From positions 3,494 through 67,493 of the forward strand of contig DAOLDD010000014.1 of the NCBI GenBank assembly GCA_035327585.1: DNA of 64,000 bases, in the 5' to 3' direction. The notes beneath the pieces were generated by a model. That model was given only the letters and a program-made list of their open reading frames with translations, ran no database searches and was not told the DNA's origin. A program made the position numbers and the translations under genes. This document shows positions 14,979 to 62,850 of the stretch, piece by piece. The stretch comes from Kiritimatiellia bacterium (GTDB lineage: Bacteria > Verrucomicrobiota > Kiritimatiellia > CAIVKH01). Positions within the stretch are counted from its first letter, which is position 1; every line of letters begins with the position of its first letter.

Positions 14979-15002
14979 TGATCTTTTACAAACCGCGGCT
15001 CC

Positions 15003-17349: not shown

Positions 17350-17661
17350 ATGCTGAGCGGAAAAATCATCGTCGGGTTGGTGCTCGTCGGCCTCGCGCTC
17401 ACTGGCGGCGGCTACGCCTCCTACACCAACGTGCGCGACGCCCGGGGCCCGCGCGAACGCCGCTTCGTCATCCGCGTCTGCGTGCTCGGCTGGCTGCTCA
17501 TCCTCTCCATGCTCGCCCTCGTCTATGCGCTGCCCGCGCCGTACCGCTACATCACCGCCCTCGTCTACTTCGTGGTCACGCCCGTCATCATCTACCGCTG
17601 GTCGCTCACCCACCAGTTGCTGCGCGTGCTCGACGAACGGGAACGCCCCGACGCGCCATGA
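17350..17661 (+). CDS. small membrane protein, hypothetical
   Basis: 103 aa with three hydrophobic helices; coding bias is consistent with the surrounding genes. Confidence 0.45.
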   Translation: MLSGKIIVGLVLVGLALTGGGYASYTNVRDARGPRERRFVIRVCVLGWLLILSMLALVYALPAPYRYITALVYFVVTPVIIYRWSLTHQLLRVLDERERPDAP

Positions 17662-18062
17662 GCTTCCGCGACCCGCGCACCCGCGCGTTCGAGGCCGGAC
17701 TCAAACGCGTATTCGACCGCATCGACCACGAACTGGAAATCCGGCACGGCGACCGCTACCGCCTGCACCCGTCGCGCCCCGCCACCGGTGAAACCGGGAA
17801 TCCCGAGATGGACGGCCTCTTCAACGTCGGCGCCGCGTTCAGCGCCGGCTTCGGTTCCGCGCACGGCCCCGGCTACCTCGTCAATGTACGCATGGTCACG
17901 CTGCAATCCGTTCCGCCCGACGTGCAGGAGGCGATGGAGGACGAAGTCGTCGCGCTGCTGCGCCAGTGGCTGCCCGACGAATTCCCCGGCCGCACCCTTT
18001 ACGTCGACCGCGACGGCCATGTGTTTAAAATCCACGGCGACCTCAGCCTCGGCGCAGCCTGA
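17658..18062 (+). CDS. hypothetical protein
   Basis: 134 aa ORF overlapping the previous gene by 4 nt (ATGA); no recognisable motif. Confidence 0.4.
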   Translation: MSFRDPRTRAFEAGLKRVFDRIDHELEIRHGDRYRLHPSRPATGETGNPEMDGLFNVGAAFSAGFGSAHGPGYLVNVRMVTLQSVPPDVQEAMEDEVVALLRQWLPDEFPGRTLYVDRDGHVFKIHGDLSLGAA

Positions 18063-18122
18063 AATTTACAACGTCTGTAAAAACTTTTTTACGGACTTAC
18101 AACGTCTGTAATTCCTTTTTTG
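18063..18122 (+). repeat. tandem pair of a roughly 31-nt unit containing TTACAACGTCTGTAA followed by an A/T-rich T-run (copy 1 of 3 dispersed loci)
   Basis: TTACAACGTCTGTAAAAACTTTTTTACGGAC followed by TTACAACGTCTGTAATTCCTTTTTT. Near-identical pairs occur at 27618-27680 and 40340-40398. Confidence 0.8.
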
Positions 18123-18190: not shown

Positions 18191-19219
18191 CTACCCCCGC
18201 GGGGCGGTGGGGCGGCCGGAGGGACAGCAATTTTCCGGGCAGACGTCGTGATTGGGCGGACGCGCGCCGATGGCGCGTTTCGGCGTCGCGGGGTCGATCC
18301 GCTCCTGCACCAGTTCGCCGAGCATCTGCACGAACAGCGGATGCGTGCCGGGCGTCGCGGCGCGTACGAGCGGGAGACCGAGTTCCTGCGCGAGTTCCTT
18401 CGCCTCGCGGTCGAGGTCGTACAGCACTTCCATGTGATCGGAGATGAATCCGATGGGCGCGAGCACGATGCCGGTCGCACCGGCGGCGTGCGCGGCGCGA
18501 ATCGCGTCGAGAATGTCCGGCTCCAGCCAGGGCTGCGCTGGCGGCCCGCTGCGGCTCTGGTACACGAGCTGCCCGTTGCGAATCCCCGCGGCCTCCGTCG
18601 TGAGCCGGCACGCCTCCTGCAACTGCGCCTCGTACGCGCAGCCCGCGGCCATCGCGGAAGGAATGCTGTGCGCGGTGAAGAACGTCGCGGCGTTCGCGCG
18701 AGCGGATTCGGGGAGCCGCGCGAAAGCCTGCTTCCAGTGGCGCGCCCACACGTCGATGAAGAGCGGGTGGTTGTACCAGACGCGTATTTTGTCGGAGGCC
18801 GGGGCGTCGGGGCCGAGCGACGCGAGCGCGCGAGCGATATCCTCGCGATACTGGCGGCAGCCGGAATAGCAACTGAAGCCGCTGGTGACCAGCGTGAGGA
18901 ACCGTTTCACGCCCGCGGCCTGCATCGCGCGCGCCGCGTCGGCGACGAACGGGGTCCAGTTGCGGTTGCCCATGTAGATCGGGAGATCGATGCCGCGCCG
19001 CTCCAGCTCCGTCTCCAGCGCGGCCTGGAGTTGCCGGTTTTGCAGGTTGATGGGACTCACGCCGCCGAACAATTCGTAGTGGTGCGCCACCTCGCGCTTG
19101 CGCTCGTCGGGCACGTTCTTCCCGCGCAGCACGTTGTCGAGGAACGGCATCACGTCGTCGAGCCCCTCGGGTCCGCCGAAGGACATGATCAACAGGGCGT
19201 CGTAGGGTGTAGTAGGCAT
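18191..19219 (-). CDS. hemH: ferrochelatase
   Basis: Begins ...DALLIMSFGGPEGLDDVMPFL, typical of ferrochelatases; 342 aa with a Cys-containing C-terminal tail. Confidence 0.9.
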   Translation of the reverse strand: MPTTPYDALLIMSFGGPEGLDDVMPFLDNVLRGKNVPDERKREVAHHYELFGGVSPINLQNRQLQAALETELERRGIDLPIYMGNRNWTPFVADAARAMQAAGVKRFLTLVTSGFSCYSGCRQYREDIARALASLGPDAPASDKIRVWYNHPLFIDVWARHWKQAFARLPESARANAATFFTAHSIPSAMAAGCAYEAQLQEACRLTTEAAGIRNGQLVYQSRSGPPAQPWLEPDILDAIRAAHAAGATGIVLAPIGFISDHMEVLYDLDREAKELAQELGLPLVRAATPGTHPLFVQMLGELVQERIDPATPKRAIGARPPNHDVCPENCCPSGRPTAPRG

Positions 19220-19242
19220 GGGGGATTTATTCTTGGCTCTTG

Positions 19243-19278
19243 GTCATTCCGTCATTCCGTCATTGGTCATTGGTCATT
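19243..19278. repeat. tandem GTCATTS heptamer array (half-copy of the GAATGAC palindromic element family)
   Basis: GTCATTCC GTCATTCC GTCATTG GTCATTG GTCATT, in the divergent hemH / EamA promoter region. Confidence 0.75.
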
Positions 19279-27428: not shown

Positions 27429-27474
27429 GGTGGGGGGAGAAGGTTTCAGGTTTCAGGTGTCGGGTGGTCAATCT

Positions 27475-27617: not shown

Positions 27618-27680
27618 AAAAAGTTTCAACGTCTGTAATTTCTTTTTTTAAAAAGTTTCAACGTCTGTAAAAATATTTCT
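27618..27680 (+). repeat. tandem pair of the TTTCAACGTCTGTAA + T-run unit (copy 2 of the TTACAACGTCTGTAA family)
   Basis: TTTCAACGTCTGTAATTTCTTTTTTT followed by TTTCAACGTCTGTAAAAATATTTCT, in the 265-nt hisB-hisH intergenic gap. Confidence 0.8.
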
Positions 27681-27694
27681 GAACATCGAACCGG

Positions 27695-28285
27695 CTAGAG
27701 CGTTCCCTTGCTCGACAACACACCTTTGATGCGCGGGTTTCGTGTCGCGGCTTGGAGCAGCGCCTTGGCGACTCCTTTGAAAACGCTCTCCAGCGCGTGG
27801 TGCGGTTCCTGGCCGTATTGCTGCGCGATGTGCAGGTTCATGCGGCCCTGGGTGACGAAGCCGCGGAAGAATTCCTCCATCAGGTCGACATCGAAATCGC
27901 GGATCTTGCGCTTCTTCGTCGCGAGGGAATAGACGAGGTACGGCCGGCCGCCGAGGTCCATCGCAACCTGGCACAGCGCCTCGTCCATCGGCACGAGGCT
28001 CCAGCCATAGCGCGTGATGCCCTTGCGGTCGCCGAGCGCCTGGTTGAGCGCCTCGCCGAGCGCAAGGCCGACATCCTCCACCGTGTGGTGATAGTCCACA
28101 TCGAGGTCGCCCTTCGCCTTCACGTTCAAATCGAGCAGCGCGTGTTTCGCGAGCAAATCGAGCATGTGATCGAGGAACGCGATCCCCGTTTTGTTTTTGT
28201 AGACGCCGTCGCCATCGAGGTTGAGGTCGATGACGATGTCGGTTTCCTTCGTTTTTCTAACAATTCGGGCCGTGCGTTTTTTCAT
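27695..28285 (-). CDS. hisB: imidazoleglycerol-phosphate dehydratase
   Basis: Begins MKKRTARIVRKTKETDIVIDLNLDG, with the HHTVED metal-binding motif; 196 aa. Start set at ATG 28285 (the ORF-track start is 450 nt too long). Confidence 0.9.
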   Translation of the reverse strand: MKKRTARIVRKTKETDIVIDLNLDGDGVYKNKTGIAFLDHMLDLLAKHALLDLNVKAKGDLDVDYHHTVEDVGLALGEALNQALGDRKGITRYGWSLVPMDEALCQVAMDLGGRPYLVYSLATKKRKIRDFDVDLMEEFFRGFVTQGRMNLHIAQQYGQEPHHALESVFKGVAKALLQAATRNPRIKGVLSSKGTL

Positions 28286-28316
28286 GACGCGGATAGGATA
28301 GCACGGCGGAGGAAGG

Positions 28317-28344
28317 ACGGAAGACGGAAAACGGAAGACGGAAA
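28317..28344. repeat. tandem heptad repeat (ACGGAAR)x4 in the divergent hisB / CYTH promoter region
   Basis: ACGGAAG ACGGAAA ACGGAAG ACGGAAA, preceded by a partial GGAAGG. Confidence 0.7.
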
Positions 28345-28354
28345 AGTCCGGGTC

Positions 28355-28831
28355 ATGAAACAGGAGATCGAACGCAAGTTTCTGGTGCGCGACGACGCGT
28401 GGCGCGCGGCCTCCGTGTCCGCGACGCGCATGCGGCAGGGGTATCTCTGCCTCGACCCGGCGCGTACGGTGCGCGTGCGGCTCGCGGGCGAGCGGGCGTG
28501 GCTCACCATCAAGGGCGAGGGCGACGGCCCGGCGCGGGCGGAATACGAATATCCGATTCCGCCGGACGACGCCGCGGCGCTGCTCGACCGCCTGTGCCAT
28601 CCCGGCCAGATCGACAAGACGCGGCATCGCATTCCGTACGGCGGGTTGGTGTTTGAAGTCGACATTTTCCACGGCGAGAACGAAGGCCTCGAACTCGCGG
28701 AAGTCGAACTGCCCGCGACCGACACCGTGGTCGAGCACCCGACCTGGCTCGGCGAGGAAGTGACCGGCGACCCGCGCTACTTCAACGCCTATCTCGCCAA
28801 ACGCCCGTTTACGACGTGGCCACAGGCCTGA
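28355..28831 (+). CDS. CYTH-domain protein (class IV adenylate cyclase / triphosphate tunnel metalloenzyme family)
   Basis: N-terminal EIERKFLV signature of CYTH domains, 158 aa; RBS-like G-rich stretch upstream. Confidence 0.7.
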   Translation: MKQEIERKFLVRDDAWRAASVSATRMRQGYLCLDPARTVRVRLAGERAWLTIKGEGDGPARAEYEYPIPPDDAAALLDRLCHPGQIDKTRHRIPYGGLVFEVDIFHGENEGLELAEVELPATDTVVEHPTWLGEEVTGDPRYFNAYLAKRPFTTWPQA

Positions 28832-39910: not shown

Positions 39911-40324
39911 ATGGCGGACACGGATATGCTGCGGGAGATGTTTCGGATGCAGGCCCTGCTCAACGAGCGGATCGGCGTGCGCAGCTCGGACCAGATGACG
40001 GAGGAGGAGCAGCAAAAGTGGGTGCTCAACTACTGCCGCGCGATGACGCAGGAGATCGCCGAACTGACCGACAGCATCCCGTGGAAGTGGTGGGCGAAGT
40101 ACCAGAAATTCGACCTGCAGAACGCGCGCGTCGAGGTGGTCGACCTGTTCCACTTCCTCATTTCCGTCGCGGAAATACTCGGCATGAGCGCGGACGACGT
40201 GTTCGCCTACTACCGCGACAAGAACAAGGTCAACTTCCAGCGCCAGGACTCCGGCTACCACACCAAGGACGAATCCGACAACAGCCAGGTCGGCCAGGGC
40301 GACAAGAAGCCGGACGCGACCTGA
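39911..40324 (+). CDS. dimeric all-alpha dUTPase-like / NTP-pyrophosphohydrolase family protein
   Basis: 137 aa helical protein with the ...ELTDSIPWKWW... block reminiscent of dimeric dUTPases (dUTPase_2-like); low certainty. Confidence 0.5.
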   Translation: MADTDMLREMFRMQALLNERIGVRSSDQMTEEEQQKWVLNYCRAMTQEIAELTDSIPWKWWAKYQKFDLQNARVEVVDLFHFLISVAEILGMSADDVFAYYRDKNKVNFQRQDSGYHTKDESDNSQVGQGDKKPDAT

Positions 40325-40339: not shown

Positions 40340-40398
40340 AATTTACAACGTCTGTAAAAGCTTTTTTGCAGGCTTACAACGTCTGTAAAACCTTTTTG
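40340..40398 (+). repeat. tandem pair of the TTACAACGTCTGTAA + T-run unit (copy 3)
   Basis: TTACAACGTCTGTAAAAGCTTTTTTGCAGGC followed by TTACAACGTCTGTAAAACCTTTTTG, between convergent genes. Confidence 0.8.
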
Positions 40399-40425: not shown

Positions 40426-41169
40426 TTAATCCGCGGTTCCCCTGCCGCGGGCGGCGCGGTAGTGGGGCAGGGTTTCGGCGAGACGCTGGATGAGTTCCGC
40501 GCTGGAGAGCTGGCCGGGTGCGCTGGATTCGTCGAGAAATCCGTAGACGAGGCACGACCCTTCGGCGGCGAGGCGGAGGCGGGAGGCCGCGCCCTGAGGG
40601 CCCATGCCCATGACGGCGAGCGGGCACGCCCATTCCCCGTGCAGGATTTTTTCCAGCCGTGCGACGTCGGAATCCTCCGCGGTCCAGGCCGCGATTTTGA
40701 CGATGTCCGCGCCGGCCGCAACGCCCTGCTCCACGAGCGCGCGGAGGCGGCCCTCGGCGGGGGTCGCGGCGAAATCGTGGAAGGATCCGATCACGCGACG
40801 GCCCGCGGCATGGGCCGCGCGCGCGACGGCATCGAACACCGGGGACTCCAACTCGACATCCACGGCGGCCACGTACGGGCAGAGTTCCGCGTAGCGGGCG
40901 GCGCGCTCCTCATCCGTTCCCTCCCACCGTCCGCCCTCGGCGGTGGACCGGATCGTGAGCAGCAACGGCGTCCGTTCCCGCACGGGCGGCGGCGTTTCGC
41001 GGAGCCACGCGGAGGCGGCGTCGCCGAGCAGGTCGGCGCGGATTTCGACGATGTCGCACGGGGGCGACGCGCGGGCCACGCCAACAAGCGTCTCCGTGCG
41101 GCTGGCCACGCCGACGACGGCAGGTACGCCGTTGAGCGCGAGGGCTCCGATGTTGGTTGCCGGGGGCAT
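40426..41169 (-). CDS. aroD: 3-dehydroquinate dehydratase, type I
   Basis: (beta/alpha)8 fold blocks, with the catalytic Lys in the block ADIVKIAAWT and the His in the block RRVIGSFHDF; 247 aa. Confidence 0.75.
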   Translation of the reverse strand: MPPATNIGALALNGVPAVVGVASRTETLVGVARASPPCDIVEIRADLLGDAASAWLRETPPPVRERTPLLLTIRSTAEGGRWEGTDEERAARYAELCPYVAAVDVELESPVFDAVARAAHAAGRRVIGSFHDFAATPAEGRLRALVEQGVAAGADIVKIAAWTAEDSDVARLEKILHGEWACPLAVMGMGPQGAASRLRLAAEGSCLVYGFLDESSAPGQLSSAELIQRLAETLPHYRAARGRGTAD

Positions 41170-44254: not shown

Positions 44255-44402
44255 GCAGCTTCGCCATTGTTGAGGGATCGCGCGAGGGGGAGGACCTGAC
44301 GGATCGGCATTCCCGGCGCGGCTTAAGTTGTTCATGTTTCCCGAACATCCAAAATATCCGGTGCCGAAGGGGGATCGCCGCAAGCGAAACCTGTCGCGCC
44401 CG

Positions 44403-45977
44403 ATGGCTTCGGACCGGCGTCAGGCCACCCGGTATGTCGGCAACTTCCCGGTGACGATCCATGTTGGACAGGGCGGGGACGCCCGCGTCTACAACGCTGT
44501 CGCCCGCGACATTTCTGATGGCGGCCTCCTGCTGGAATGCGCGGATGTACCGCCCGGGGAGACGCGAATCCGCGTGCAATTCAAAGTGCCCGAGGGCGTC
44601 ATGCCGGAGGAATTTTCGCACGGCGCCCAATCCACGGAAGGCGAGGTGCGGCGACGCGACGGCGATCGAAAGCTGCTGGGCGTGCAGTTCGCGCAACCGA
44701 TGAGCCGGCGGCTCGCGCGGACGACCTGGAACTATCTCCGGGGCATCGCGACCCTGGCCCTGATGGTCACCCTCGCCCTGATCGTCCTGATCAAGGTCGA
44801 GAATTTTTATTATTTCTGGTTCGACGTGCCCGTGTTCCTGTACAGCCTCGCGGTCGGCGCGTTCCTGCTCTCGCGCTTCCTGTTCGCGGCGTTCTACCGC
44901 GCGCCCCGGCCGCGGGATGACGCGAGCCTGCCGACCGTCAGCGTCATTTTTCCGGTGTTTAATGAGGAGGGATTCATCGAACGCACGCTGGTGCAGGCGC
45001 TCGAAGTGGCCTACCCCCTCGACAAATTGCAGGTCATCGCGGTGAACGACGGCAGCCGGGACCAGACCTTCCAAATCATGCAACGCGTCCAGCAACGGTA
45101 TCCCGAGCTGGTCCTCGTGAACCTGGAGAAGTCGATGGGCAAACGCGGCGCCATCGCCGCCGGCGCGCAACTGGCGACGGGCGAAATCCTGGTGCTCTCC
45201 GACTCCGACAGCTTTTTCCAGCCGGACGCCATCCGCCGGATCGTCGACGGGTTCACCGAACCGAAGGTCGCGGCGATCACCGGGCACTGCGACGTCGAGA
45301 ACGCGTGGACGAACCTGCTGACCAAGATGCAGACCGTCCGCTACTACATCAGCTTCCGCGTGATGAAGGCGGCCGAAAGCGTGTTCGACGCCGTGACCTG
45401 CCTTTCCGGACCCTTCGCCGCGTACCGGCGCGAGGTGTTCATGTCCGTGGCCGACCGGTGGCTCAACCAGCGCTGGTGCGGCGCGCCCGCGACGTTCGGC
45501 GACGACCGTGCGCTGACCAATTTTGTCCTGCGCCAGGGCCACGCGGTGATTTACGACTCGCGGGCGCGGTGCACCACCATCGTGCCGGAGGACTACCGCA
45601 CGTTCCTGCGCCAGCAGATGCGCTGGAAGCGTTCGTGGTTCCGGGAGTGCATGCGCGGCTGCGCCTACATCTGGAAATATCCGCCACTGGTCTCGCTCTC
45701 CTACTACTTGGGGTTCATCCTCCCGCTCGTCGCCCCCATCGTCGTATTCCGCGCCCTGCTCTACATGCCGCTCTTCCAGCGCGGCAGCCCGCTGATGTAC
45801 ATGCTCGGCATCCTGCTGATGAGCAGCTTGATGAGTTCGGTGTATCTCTTCACGCGCCGCTCGCGCCTGTGGATCTACGGCATCCCATTCTGCTTCTTCT
45901 ACATGTTCGTGCTGGTCTGGCAACTACCGTGGGCGATGCTCACCTCCGCCCACGCAAAATGGGGCACGCGGGGCTGA
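44403..45977 (+). CDS. processive family-2 glycosyltransferase (cellulose/PNAG/hyaluronan-synthase-like) with an N-terminal PilZ c-di-GMP-binding domain
   Basis: PilZ motifs RRQATR (RxxxR) and DISDGG (DxSxGG); GT2 core with DGSRD and LSDSDS acidic motifs and the Q(Q/R)xRW motif QQMRWKRSW; about 7 TM helices. An alternative upstream start is at 44328. Confidence 0.85.
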   Translation: MASDRRQATRYVGNFPVTIHVGQGGDARVYNAVARDISDGGLLLECADVPPGETRIRVQFKVPEGVMPEEFSHGAQSTEGEVRRRDGDRKLLGVQFAQPMSRRLARTTWNYLRGIATLALMVTLALIVLIKVENFYYFWFDVPVFLYSLAVGAFLLSRFLFAAFYRAPRPRDDASLPTVSVIFPVFNEEGFIERTLVQALEVAYPLDKLQVIAVNDGSRDQTFQIMQRVQQRYPELVLVNLEKSMGKRGAIAAGAQLATGEILVLSDSDSFFQPDAIRRIVDGFTEPKVAAITGHCDVENAWTNLLTKMQTVRYYISFRVMKAAESVFDAVTCLSGPFAAYRREVFMSVADRWLNQRWCGAPATFGDDRALTNFVLRQGHAVIYDSRARCTTIVPEDYRTFLRQQMRWKRSWFRECMRGCAYIWKYPPLVSLSYYLGFILPLVAPIVVFRALLYMPLFQRGSPLMYMLGILLMSSLMSSVYLFTRRSRLWIYGIPFCFFYMFVLVWQLPWAMLTSAHAKWGTRG

Positions 45978-49763: not shown

Positions 49764-49776
49764 AATGGGGAAAACC

Positions 49777-49866
49777 CGAATGACAAATTCCGAATGACGA
49801 ATGGACTATAGTCCCCATTGGTCATTCCGTCATTCGTCATTGGTCATTGGTCATTTCATCATTCTC
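49777..49866. repeat. palindromic element built from GAATGAC/GTCATTC heptamers around a perfect GGACTATAGTCC core
   Basis: CGAATGACAAATTCCGAATGACGAATGG-ACTATAGT-CCATTGGTCATTCCGTCATTCGTCATTGGTCATTGGTCATT; ends about 14 nt upstream of the ferredoxin ATG on the minus strand. Confidence 0.8.
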
Positions 49867-57755: not shown

Positions 57756-58177
57756 GAGGCGCGCTTCCCGGCGGGACGTTTTTTCTTCCGCACCGGGGCG
57801 GGACACGTCGCGCGCAGCCATTTCGCATAGCCCCGCTCATCCAGCTCCCCCGCCGCCAGCGCCAGCGTCTGGAGCACGACCTCCTCCTCAGGGGCTTCGA
57901 AGGAAATCCCGTTGGTTTCCAGAAACAACGCCGCGGCCATAAAGCCTGCGCGCTTGTTGCCATCCAGAAATGGGTGATTTCGGACAATTCCCGCGGCATA
58001 CGCAGCTGCCATCTCAAACAAGTCCGGTGCACCGTAGACGAATAACTGCCGGGGACGATTCAGCGCGGACTCCAGCAATCCCAGATCACGAACACCGGGC
58101 AGTCCTCCGAATTGCGCCAGCATGTCCTCATGAAAGGCCAACGCGTCATTCACATCCACCCAAATCGGTTCGCTCAT
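57752..58177 (-). CDS. doc: Doc (death-on-curing) Fic-family toxin
   Basis: Fic/Doc motif HPFLDGNKRAG; 141 aa; directly downstream of an AbrB-fold antitoxin gene. Confidence 0.8.
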   Translation of the reverse strand: MSEPIWVDVNDALAFHEDMLAQFGGLPGVRDLGLLESALNRPRQLFVYGAPDLFEMAAAYAAGIVRNHPFLDGNKRAGFMAAALFLETNGISFEAPEEEVVLQTLALAAGELDERGYAKWLRATCPAPVRKKKRPAGKRAS

Positions 58178-58404
58178 TTCGCCAACTCACGGAGGGCGTT
58201 GCGATAGCGGTGTATCAGCTTCTCGACGATTTCCTGCTTGGCCGCGAAGCCGCTGCGATCCGGCGTCATCCGCACCGACTGCTCCGGCGCCTCGGTCAGG
58301 TAAAGGACATCCCCCTCCTTCACCATCATGGCCTTCATCGCCTCCTTCGGGAGCAGGATGCCGTAGGAGTTGCCGATCTTGCGGACTTTGGTTTTTAGCG
58401 TCAT
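58174..58404 (-). CDS. phd: AbrB/MazE-fold antitoxin (Phd-like partner of Doc)
   Basis: KIGNSYGILLPKE swapped-hairpin signature; 76 aa; overlaps doc by 4 nt. Confidence 0.7.
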   Translation of the reverse strand: MTLKTKVRKIGNSYGILLPKEAMKAMMVKEGDVLYLTEAPEQSVRMTPDRSGFAAKQEIVEKLIHRYRNALRELAK

Positions 58405-62778: not shown

Positions 62779-62850
62779 AATGACGAATGTCGAATGACGG
62801 AATGACGAATGGACTCAATGGATTCGTCATTCGGATTTCGTCATTCGTCA
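62779..62850. repeat. palindromic GAATGAC/GTCATTC heptamer element (copy 3), between the aspartate kinase stop and the cimA start
   Basis: AATGACGAATGTCGAATGACGGAATGACGAATGGA-CTCAA-TGGATTCGTCATTCGGATTTCGTCATTCGTCA; ends about 17 nt upstream of the cimA ATG on the minus strand. Confidence 0.8.

Follow-up and report, generated by a model that had tools for sequence, protein, structure and literature searches.

The 64,000-nucleotide stretch of a Kiritimatiellia bacterium genome analysed here (contig DAOLDD010000014.1 of assembly GCA_035327585.1; hereafter the window) carries, at three intergenic loci, a short repeat that always occurs as a tandem pair. We find that each pair consists of two symmetric boxes of 15 bp placed three helical turns apart, and that such phased boxes form a widespread and undescribed family in Kiritimatiellae and Verrucomicrobia genomes. 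The arrays are strongly biased towards intergenic DNA, are independent of gene orientation and stay in place while the box sequence changes between lineages, and certain copies inside genes originated by substitution. We consider it somewhat probable, from these sequence patterns, that the boxes are phased binding sites of an oligomeric protein that recognises double-stranded DNA.

Anatomy of the paired repeat

The 12-nt core CAACGTCTGTAA has six exact copies in the window, all on the + strand, which form three pairs with start-to-start periods of 31, 32 and 31. The tandem pairs recorded in an initial annotation at 18063-18122, 27618-27680 and 40340-40398 were confirmed in sequence, and comprise the following boxes and spacers.

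Locus 1 box a, 18066..18080, + strand: TTACAACGTCTGTAA, with arms TTACA/TGTAA and centre ACGTC.
Locus 1 spacer, 18081..18096, + strand: AAAACTTTTTTACGGAC, an A-tract, a T-tract and then a G+C-rich part.
Locus 1 box b, 18097..18111, + strand: TTACAACGTCTGTAA, 31 bp after box a.
Locus 2 box a, 27624..27638, + strand: TTTCAACGTCTGTAA, in the hisB-hisH gap.
Locus 2 spacer, 27639-27655.
Locus 2 box b, 27656..27670, + strand: TTTCAACGTCTGTAA, 32 bp after box a and 24 nt from the hisB stop (27695).
Locus 3 box a, 40343..40357, + strand: TTACAACGTCTGTAA, 18 nt past the stop of a dUTPase-like + strand gene (39911-40324).
Locus 3 spacer, 40358-40373.
Locus 3 box b, 40374..40388, + strand: TTACAACGTCTGTAA, 31 bp after box a.

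When up to two mismatches to the core were allowed, the window contained 10 matches against 1.8 expected, a number reached by none of 100 shuffles. The generalised box TTNCA-N5-TGNAA gave 7 matches against 0.35 expected (again, 0 of 100 shuffles reach 7), and six of these are the units listed above. The seventh (45069-45083, TTCCAAATCATGCAA) is unpaired, lies within the gene 44334-45977 and is probably a chance match. The suggestion that the repeat is a protein-binding site is supported by this anatomy; the further suggestion that the two units are half-sites is not, since each unit of ~15 bp is a symmetric full site.

The same pair in related genomes

A pair-pattern scan of one genome per species, with periods of 26-38 allowed, retrieved at least 67 loci by exact pattern. 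At least 64 loci with the pair come from two metagenome-assembled genomes (MAGs) labelled uncultured Verrucomicrobia(ota), CALKUH01 and CAYMCD01. Three loci of the scan were rejected as relatives and are treated as unrelated coincidences: in Streptococcus sp. DD12 (L013 4839-6369) the 12-mer lies within a 30-nt repeat array that is probably coding, and in a Rikenellaceae MAG (L029 2062-2111, L038 5159-5208) it forms part of a 19-nt tandem repeat plus palindrome around ACAACGTCTGTAA. In this low-GC Bacteroidota MAG the core 12-mer is contained in the palindrome AGACGTTGTGTACAACGTCTGTAA.

The 64 MAG loci listed and the three window loci make up the set of 67 listed pairs used for the statistics. 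The period was 31 in 31 pairs and 32 in 36, with no other value observed, and the spacer measured 16-17 nt in all 67, its sequence being conserved neither between loci nor between genomes. Conservation around the core extends to TT at -3/-2 and to AAA following it; directly 5' of the core the window has A or T, and the MAGs mostly have G (CALKUH01) and C (CAYMCD01). Among the listed matches the core itself is identical in ~140 copies from three or more genomes. Its invariance in the MAG loci is partly due to ascertainment by the exact pattern, and the window together with L070 and L073 provide the unbiased checks. Across ~540 kb searched we found no single units and no copies with one mismatch, barring a degenerate inverted third unit. 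Unbiased DNA totalling 239 kb contained ~10 arrays, always phased and always of at least two boxes, and the array density is ~1 per 20-25 kb.

The degenerate third unit abuts unit 2 in 23 of the 67 listed pairs, none of them in the window (loci with a third unit include L002, L009, L010, L019, L021, L026, L027, L049, L052, L053 and L057). It is placed head-to-head, as CAACGTCTGTAA-A/T-TTACAGnnnCTGNAAAA, forming a palindrome of ~31 bp, and a start codon often lies 10-35 nt downstream of it. All pairs in unbiased DNA (the three in the window, L070 and L073) are head-to-tail.

Box arrays are helically phased

A metagenome scan for pairs of TTCCA-N5-TGGAA yielded at least 120 loci. The listed arrays of TTCCAA-N3-TTGGAA boxes, which are flanked by a T-run and an A-run, contain two (64 arrays), three (17), four (10), five (1) or six (1) boxes, and the number reaches 7 with slightly looser arms. 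Box spacings of 22, 30-32, 41-42, 52, 62-63, 73 and 94 bp were observed, which correspond to ~2, 3, 4, 5, 6, 7 or 9 helical turns only among the arrays listed. All 35 spacings that were not imposed by the query lie no more than 1.5 bp from a multiple of 10.5 (p about 1e-19). Certain series recur, for example 31-30-22 and 22-31-30-22-31, in which three and two turns alternate. Such periodicity is a property of duplex DNA, and is expected if dimers must share one side of the helix. For tandem sites of IclR-family regulators, location of the dimers on the same helix side has indeed been stated (PMC8222616).

Boxes persist at orthologous sites through changes of dialect

In order to escape the exact-pattern ascertainment, the his loci of relatives were reached via HisH homologues, and the hisB-hisH gap was compared across nine genomes including the window, with taxonomy taken from the names attached to the homologues. 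The window HisH is 91% identical to that of CALKUH01, and 80-81% identical to proteins named Kiritimatiellae bacterium by NCBI. A phased array occupies the orthologous gap in six of the nine genomes (five of the eight relatives), in five dialects.

Window: TTTCAACGTCTGTAA, two boxes, period 32.
CALKUH01, L070 (HisH 91%): TT(T/G)CAACGTCTGTAA, two boxes, period 31.
L194 (HisH 84%): TTCCATGCTCTGTAA, two boxes, period 31.
L195 (HisH 81%): TTCCAT-N3-ATGGAA, two boxes, period 31.
L071 (HisH 81%): TTCCAA-N3-TTGGAA, four boxes, periods 32, 31 and 32.
L072 (HisH 80%): TTCCAAGCGTTGGAA, two boxes, period 32.

Every dialect fits TTNCA-N5-TGNAA, a pattern that matches little besides the units in unbiased DNA; neighbouring dialects are separated by 1-3 substitutions, and the three asymmetric dialects conserve their orientation relative to the his genes. 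Boxes are absent from the short (~70 nt) hisB-hisH gap of L073, L196 and L197; L073 carries TTCCAACGTCTGGAA pairs elsewhere. Six further gaps that are orthologous between CALKUH01 and CAYMCD01 keep the pair (median protein identity 77%), both members of each having been retrieved by pattern, while the spacer, period, T-run and third unit differ between them.

Position relative to genes argues for operon borders

Genes in the window were called heuristically, using a codon-position G+C filter followed by a self-trained codon model, and were checked against Pfam. The placement of loci 1 and 3 after + strand stop codons and between convergent genes, as originally noted, was borne out by these gene calls and by Pfam. 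Locus 1 box a begins 3 nt past the stop codon of the + strand gene 17658-18062, the last of a pilin-like (T2SSJ/N_methyl) operon, and box b lies 79 nt short of the stop of the ferrochelatase gene opposite (- strand, 18191-19219). At locus 3 the dUTPase-like gene is upstream, and box b is 37 nt short of the stop of aroD on the - strand (40426-41169). Locus 2 does lie within the hisB-hisH gap, as stated previously; both genes are on the - strand, the gap measures 266 nt (hisB stop 27695, hisH start 27428), and the box units are antisense to the his operon.

Across the listed pairs, 66 of 67 are intergenic, compared with 11% non-coding DNA (p about 1e-57). Read in the orientation of the element, the flanking genes of 61 pairs are -/+ (divergent) in 18, -/- in 18, +/+ in 13 and +/- (convergent) in 12. 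The ratio of gaps with a pair to gaps without is 12/26 for convergent, 17/47 for divergent and 30/164 for co-directional neighbours; co-directional gaps are under-used relative to the other two kinds, a bias pointing to operon borders. Distances to stop codons (median ~15-27 nt) are shorter than those to start codons (~40-54 nt). Period, T-runs and third unit show no dependence on gene context.

The uniform + strand orientation described in the initial annotation holds within the window and not beyond it: in the 64 related loci pair orientation divides 34 against 30 with respect to GC skew (p=0.71), and gene strand is likewise unlinked. The + strand pattern of the window is a chance outcome, and a replication-polar signal (Chi/KOPS/Ter-like) was rejected on the same grounds. 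As to random placement relative to genes, the orientation of genes is indeed immaterial, and the intergenic bias, the phasing and the positional conservation are non-random. Neighbouring genes show no functional theme: the 127 proteins flanking the listed pairs gave 169 Pfam families, none occurring more than 3 times, and the 102 proteins flanking arrays of at least three boxes gave 135 families, again diverse. Among the 229 flanking proteins there is no transposase and no recurrent regulator. A single-pathway regulon, or a binder gene regulating itself, was rejected in view of these diverse neighbours and the lack of a recurrent transcription factor.

The location of loci 1 and 3, starting 3-18 nt past + strand stops, had prompted the idea of an unusual terminator class, which was not borne out by gene context, T-run counts or folding. 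It would be a bidirectional intrinsic terminator, in which a U-run downstream of a weak, A/U-rich hairpin (TTACA-ACGTC-TGTAA) releases RNA polymerase at gene ends. Consistent with this, T-runs follow five of the six window units, T-runs occur on both strands at locus 2, a weak terminator-like match is present at 18089-18111, and the element adds no length to convergent gaps (medians 92.5 and 90.5 nt). In the fold of locus 1 (-18.9 kcal/mol, z -2.8) the core tail is paired with the spacer. However, divergent genes flank 18 of the 61 pairs, and the element points at random with or against the gene upstream of it. The T-run, at first described as part of the unit, is a feature of those five window units and not a constant one, as of 61 related pairs only 24 have at least four T's after unit 1 and only 15 after unit 2; T-runs accompany fewer than half of the pairs, irrespective of gene context. 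Where an intrinsic terminator has a stable G+C-rich hairpin, the proposed stem is only 5 bp and A/T-rich; its TTNCA/TGTAA arms are often mismatched in relatives, and a C or T before the core in other genomes breaks it. The + strand RNA folds of the three loci (z -2.8, +1.7 and -1.35) are inconsistent and depend on locus-specific pairing with the spacer; for loci 2 and 3 they do not improve on shuffles. In addition, the palindromic dialects are followed by A-runs rather than U-runs, and some arrays lie inside genes. We consider a terminator highly improbable. Rfam gave a tRNA as the only match at gathering threshold, and none at the three loci up to E = 5. Between positions 15000 and 34000, intrinsic-terminator-like sites are not enriched over shuffles (20 versus 16.2), and the window genome may rely on other ways of ending transcripts.

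Equally hard to credit is a promoter or UP-like element, in which the AT-rich boxes (TTGCAA ... TGTAAAAT-like) would serve as -35/-10 or activator sites, possibly in both directions. The element is the only AT-rich DNA in divergent gaps of 74-121 nt (L031, L003, L009, L019, L037), a dozen loci have a start codon 10-35 nt past unit 2 or 3, and leaders of C-rich heptads often come directly after. Against this, the neighbours of 12 of 61 pairs are convergent, including two pairs of the window where Pfam confirmed the genes, and a scan found no sigma-70-like match within the elements. The TTCCAA-N3-TTGGAA dialect lacks a -10-like hexamer, yet occupies the same hisB-hisH gap. A sigma-70 promoter has -35 and -10 hexamers 16-18 bp apart upstream of a gene; on inspection by eye, the spacings agreed with neither this geometry nor that of sigma-54 or extracytoplasmic function (ECF) promoters. 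The candidate readings rejected in this way were sigma-70 (TTGCAA/TAAAAT), sigma-54 (TTGCA as -12), ECF (AAC...CGTC) and PvdS-type (TAAAT-N16-CGT).

Copies inside genes and on phage DNA

Approximately 77% of the listed TTCCAA-N3-TTGGAA arrays are intergenic, and two of the pairs inside genes are informative as to origin. In the gene for DinB, DNA polymerase IV (L115:2058-2104), and in an aspartase gene (L087:1671-1716), a TTCCAA-N3-TTGGAA pair lies in a region whose translation aligns ungapped to a solved homologue. Because no gap occurs across the boxes, these two pairs arose by substitution. The boxes encode peptides of the FQxLEK and LPxLGK type, replacing residues that are usually conserved.

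The only window-type pair inside a gene belongs to a glutamine-dependent NAD synthetase, NadE (L005:1324-3090, - strand). Relative to a solved homologue this protein has two in-frame inserts (residues 232-270 and 451-485). The insert in the interdomain linker contains the box pair together with C-rich heptads (…ESSNVCKNSSERLSTSVNSPPRHPKPNTSSPPPPP…), and the second is a palindromic heptad element; both resemble the Rickettsia-type palindromic elements found in genes.

Arrays also occur on a phage-like contig (IMGVR_UViG_3300035698_006241; L202 650-767 and 14358-14466, L200 3429-3505) encoding a portal protein, head maturation protease, major head protein and DNA methyltransferase. These arrays are several in number, phased and in a host-type dialect, and six other IMG/VR loci also carry pairs. 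Window-type pairs had 0 matches in viral contigs.

An alternative is a relationship to repetitive extragenic palindromic (REP) sequences and bacterial interspersed mosaic elements (BIMEs), small selfish or domesticated palindromes that spread between genes, recognised by a transposase-like enzyme or a host protein and occasionally inserted in frame. The boxes are high-copy, lineage-specific, palindromic, almost exclusively intergenic and nearer to stops than to starts; the NadE linker pair sits beside a second palindromic in-frame insert; heptad-repeat hairpin elements flank ~20% of pairs; and arrays are present on the phage-like contig. Literature precedent also exists, as intragenic REPs have been reported, many of them in the verrucomicrobium Opitutus terrae, along with CGTC-tagged families that have no known transposase (PMC3733652). 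We nevertheless regard this explanation as unlikely. Strict helical phasing argues for recognition of the duplex and not of single-strand hairpins. The units are head-to-tail, an arrangement described as 'negligible' for REP dimers (PMC3733652), their stems are 5-6 bp, and CGTC is central and not an unpaired terminal tag. Divergent gaps are used as well (18/61), no transposase is found among the neighbours, and identical cores are joined by unrelated spacers with no decaying cloud of one-mismatch copies in ~540 kb. Finally, the DinB and aspartase pairs involve no indel.

A further possibility, that the boxes are DNA uptake sequences (DUS) or uptake signal sequences (USS), would have competence-receptor motifs accumulate by biased uptake and recombination. 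The near-invariant, high-information core, the A/T-tract flanks, the dialects and an orientation independent of genes and replication are all in keeping with it, as are boxes written by substitution into conserved genes including the repair gene dinB, copies on the phage-like contig and the pilin-like (T2SSJ/N_methyl) operon adjoining locus 1. Known uptake sequences of Neisseria and Pasteurellaceae occur as single motifs, in coding and non-coding DNA alike, at a density of ~1 per kb, compared with ~1 array per 20-25 kb here. Moreover, the obligate pairing and phasing of 2-7 boxes have no DUS/USS counterpart, 77-99% of arrays are intergenic, and drive alone would not be expected to keep arrays at orthologous gaps while their dialect changes. 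On balance we judge an uptake signal to be quite improbable. CRISPR-like repeat-spacer-repeat units, target-site duplications and iterons were rejected on anatomy, as were parS and Noc-binding sites (NBS; ParB/Noc), for which half-sites would be 5 bp further apart.

Heptad repeats and other features of the window

Intergenic tandem repeats of heptads are found in the window at 1910-1939, 19240-19278, 27441-27464, 28311-28343, 49776-49864 and 62779-62850 (ATCCGAA, TTGGTCA/GTCATTC, AGGTTTC/GGTGTCG, GGAAGAC, CGAATGA/CATTCGT and AATGACG/ATTCGTC). They are often inverted arrays able to form long hairpins and are frequently located directly upstream of start codons, as in CCCGACACCTGAAACCTGAAACCTTCTCCCCCCACC-ATG of hisH; the same kinds of heptads occur in the related MAGs. 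The GGAAGAC repeats (28311-28343) fall inside an extension of the hisB open reading frame (ORF): the longest ORF (27695-28738, - strand, 347 aa) carries an N-terminal extension of ~150 residues, relatives encode 196 aa, and the extension is almost certainly not translated. Reading the translation by eye, we recognised a conserved gene pair common to the window (57822-58404, - strand) and the MAG CALKUH01 (L047 5540-6170), in which an antitoxin-like gene (76 aa) precedes a Fic/Doc-like toxin ORF.

Proposed binding of an oligomeric protein

That a protein binds the boxes, its oligomeric state, its family and the outcome of binding are proposed here on the basis of the patterns described above. 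Each two-fold symmetric 15-bp box, with its A/T-rich flanks, would accommodate a single dimer, the protein being one that recognises its sequence in double-stranded DNA. At a distance of 31-32 bp two such dimers would face the same way along the helix, and their binding could be cooperative, whether they form a tetramer or belong to a larger complex around which the DNA wraps. In the window, the DNA of each pair, bent and flanked by A-tracts, would then carry on one of its faces either a tetramer or one half of a larger particle. The specificity of the predicted binder may have drifted between lineages, giving rise to the dialects, with the sites following in place. Binding might serve to insulate or regulate operons at their borders and could, for instance, uncouple hisHAF from hisB. 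The predicted factor would act genome-wide: its sites mark operon borders of every sort and, here and there, coding sequence, which makes an insulator, a nucleoid-associated organiser or a global regulator appear likelier than the repressor of a pathway. The probability left after this proposal and the four alternatives above (terminator, promoter, REP-like repeat and uptake signal) falls to something else.

Several observations weigh against phased protein binding. The information content of the core is far above what a transcription factor needs, and is typical of repeats, uptake signals and recombinase sites; its centre, always ACGTC in the window lineage, varies freely in other lineages. 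Where present, the third unit lies 16 bp centre-to-centre from unit 2 (1.5 turns), a spacing unexplained by a same-face model. Sites occur in convergent gaps and inside genes without an obvious regulatory target. The NadE pair, located within a linker insertion of ~23 residues, hints at mobility, and heptad hairpin elements (GGGTGTC/GACACCC) flank ~20% of listed pairs; conversely, 12 of the 14 GGGTGTC-type clusters in the data adjoin a box pair. With regard to the Lrp family, its boxes are A/T-rich in the centre, in contrast to the G+C-containing ACGTC, and no homologue of E. coli Lrp was detected among 1148 proteins of the sampled loci, although this is a weak test. That the binder belongs to the Lrp family specifically, a suggestion made by analogy, is much less probable than binding as such.

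More speculatively, the boxes could be the cis-element of a previously unrecognised genome-wide system for DNA marking or chromosome organisation in Kiritimatiellae and related Planctomycetes-Verrucomicrobia-Chlamydiae (PVC) bacteria, an idea we hold only tentatively. An oligomeric protein would read phased arrays at intervals of ~20 kb, and its specificity would co-evolve with hundreds of sites under a pressure strong enough to write arrays into DinB, aspartase and resident phage DNA. The function might be, for example, domain-boundary or supercoil insulation, marking of self-DNA, or an uptake or segregation signal, and would be neither classical regulation nor transposition.

Kiritimatiellae and Verrucomicrobia are abundant, poorly studied and have almost no known cis-regulatory or chromosome-organising signals. 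No description of the element was found in Rfam or in the searchable literature, where the core and the TTCCAA/TTGGAA palindromes returned only primers besides the analogies cited here. If our interpretation is correct, roughly 1 in 20 intergenic regions is marked by a compact, highly specific and readily searchable motif that is conserved in position while its dialect changes. The motif would then offer a direct handle on its reader protein, through pull-down, DNA affinity purification sequencing (DAP-seq) or correlation of dialect with recognition-helix residues, and would provide a natural system in which to study the co-evolution of a DNA-binding protein with hundreds of sites. A genome without canonical terminators may also use it to define its operon borders, and the dialects could be used as lineage markers in metagenome binning.

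Comparison with known systems

The uptake sequence of Neisseria is GCCGTCTGAA, with which the invariant 12-nt core shares CGTCTG. Dialects, A/T-tract flanks, genic copies arising by substitution and copies on phage DNA extend this likeness to DUS. In contrast to DUS/USS, the density here is 20-fold lower, phased arrays are obligate and the intergenic bias is strong.

Like REP and BIME sequences, which in the case of the E. coli BIMEs are bound by IHF and gyrase, the boxes are small palindromes that are dispersed, high-copy, lineage-specific, extragenic, close to gene 3' ends and occasionally intragenic in frame. REP units differ in being palindromes of 20-40 bp with a stem of 8-9 bp and an unpaired terminal GTAG/CGTC tag, compared with 5-6-bp arms and a central CGTC here (PMC3733652). 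They are also mostly oppositely oriented, whereas the present arrays are head-to-tail and helically phased. While REPs lie predominantly between unidirectional or convergent genes, the listed pairs are extragenic in 66 of 67 cases and divergent in 18 of 61. Unrelated spacers between copies, and genic copies without an indel, are further differences from REPs. REPs are also associated with a cognate RAYT transposase gene that they flank; no transposase is present among the 229 flanking proteins sampled here.

The operator of NrdR consists of boxes 31-32 bp apart centre-to-centre in nrd promoters. Tandem IclR operators similarly comprise palindromes at integer turns (2, 3 or 4) with dimers on the same face, as proposed for the boxes (PMC8222616). 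The operator pairs of these tetrameric regulators, however, belong to the promoters of one regulon. The box arrays have up to 7 members and show neither a common regulon nor a constant position relative to promoters.

The arrays of Lrp/AsnC-type regulators, with spacers of 15-17 bp, a period of 30-32 bp and several boxes, resemble the spacers of 16-17 bp observed here; Ss-LrpB and E. coli Lrp are further examples of such operator arrays. Lrp/AsnC operators differ in having few and degenerate sites, as opposed to hundreds of near-perfect sites per genome, and an A/T-rich box centre, where the window lineage has ACGTC and other lineages a variable centre, often G+C-rich (GCG, GGG). Also unlike those operators, the present sites occur in convergent gaps and in genes, with no Lrp-family gene linked to them. 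The closest individual likeness is to BarR, an Lrp-type regulator of Sulfolobales, which is described as an octamer that binds 15-bp semi-palindromic sites (e.g. TTGTACTTTTTACAA) separated by 15-17-bp spacers, with one dimer per site, and wraps the DNA (PMC10201364). The BarR site TFBS3, TTGTACTTTTTACAA, and the window box TTACAACGTCTGTAA are both 15-bp semi-palindromes with outer 5-bp arms, starting with TT and ending with AA. Binding of the Lrp/AsnC kind, with one dimer per box and wrapping around an octamer, would account for 2-4 boxes on one face of the helix.

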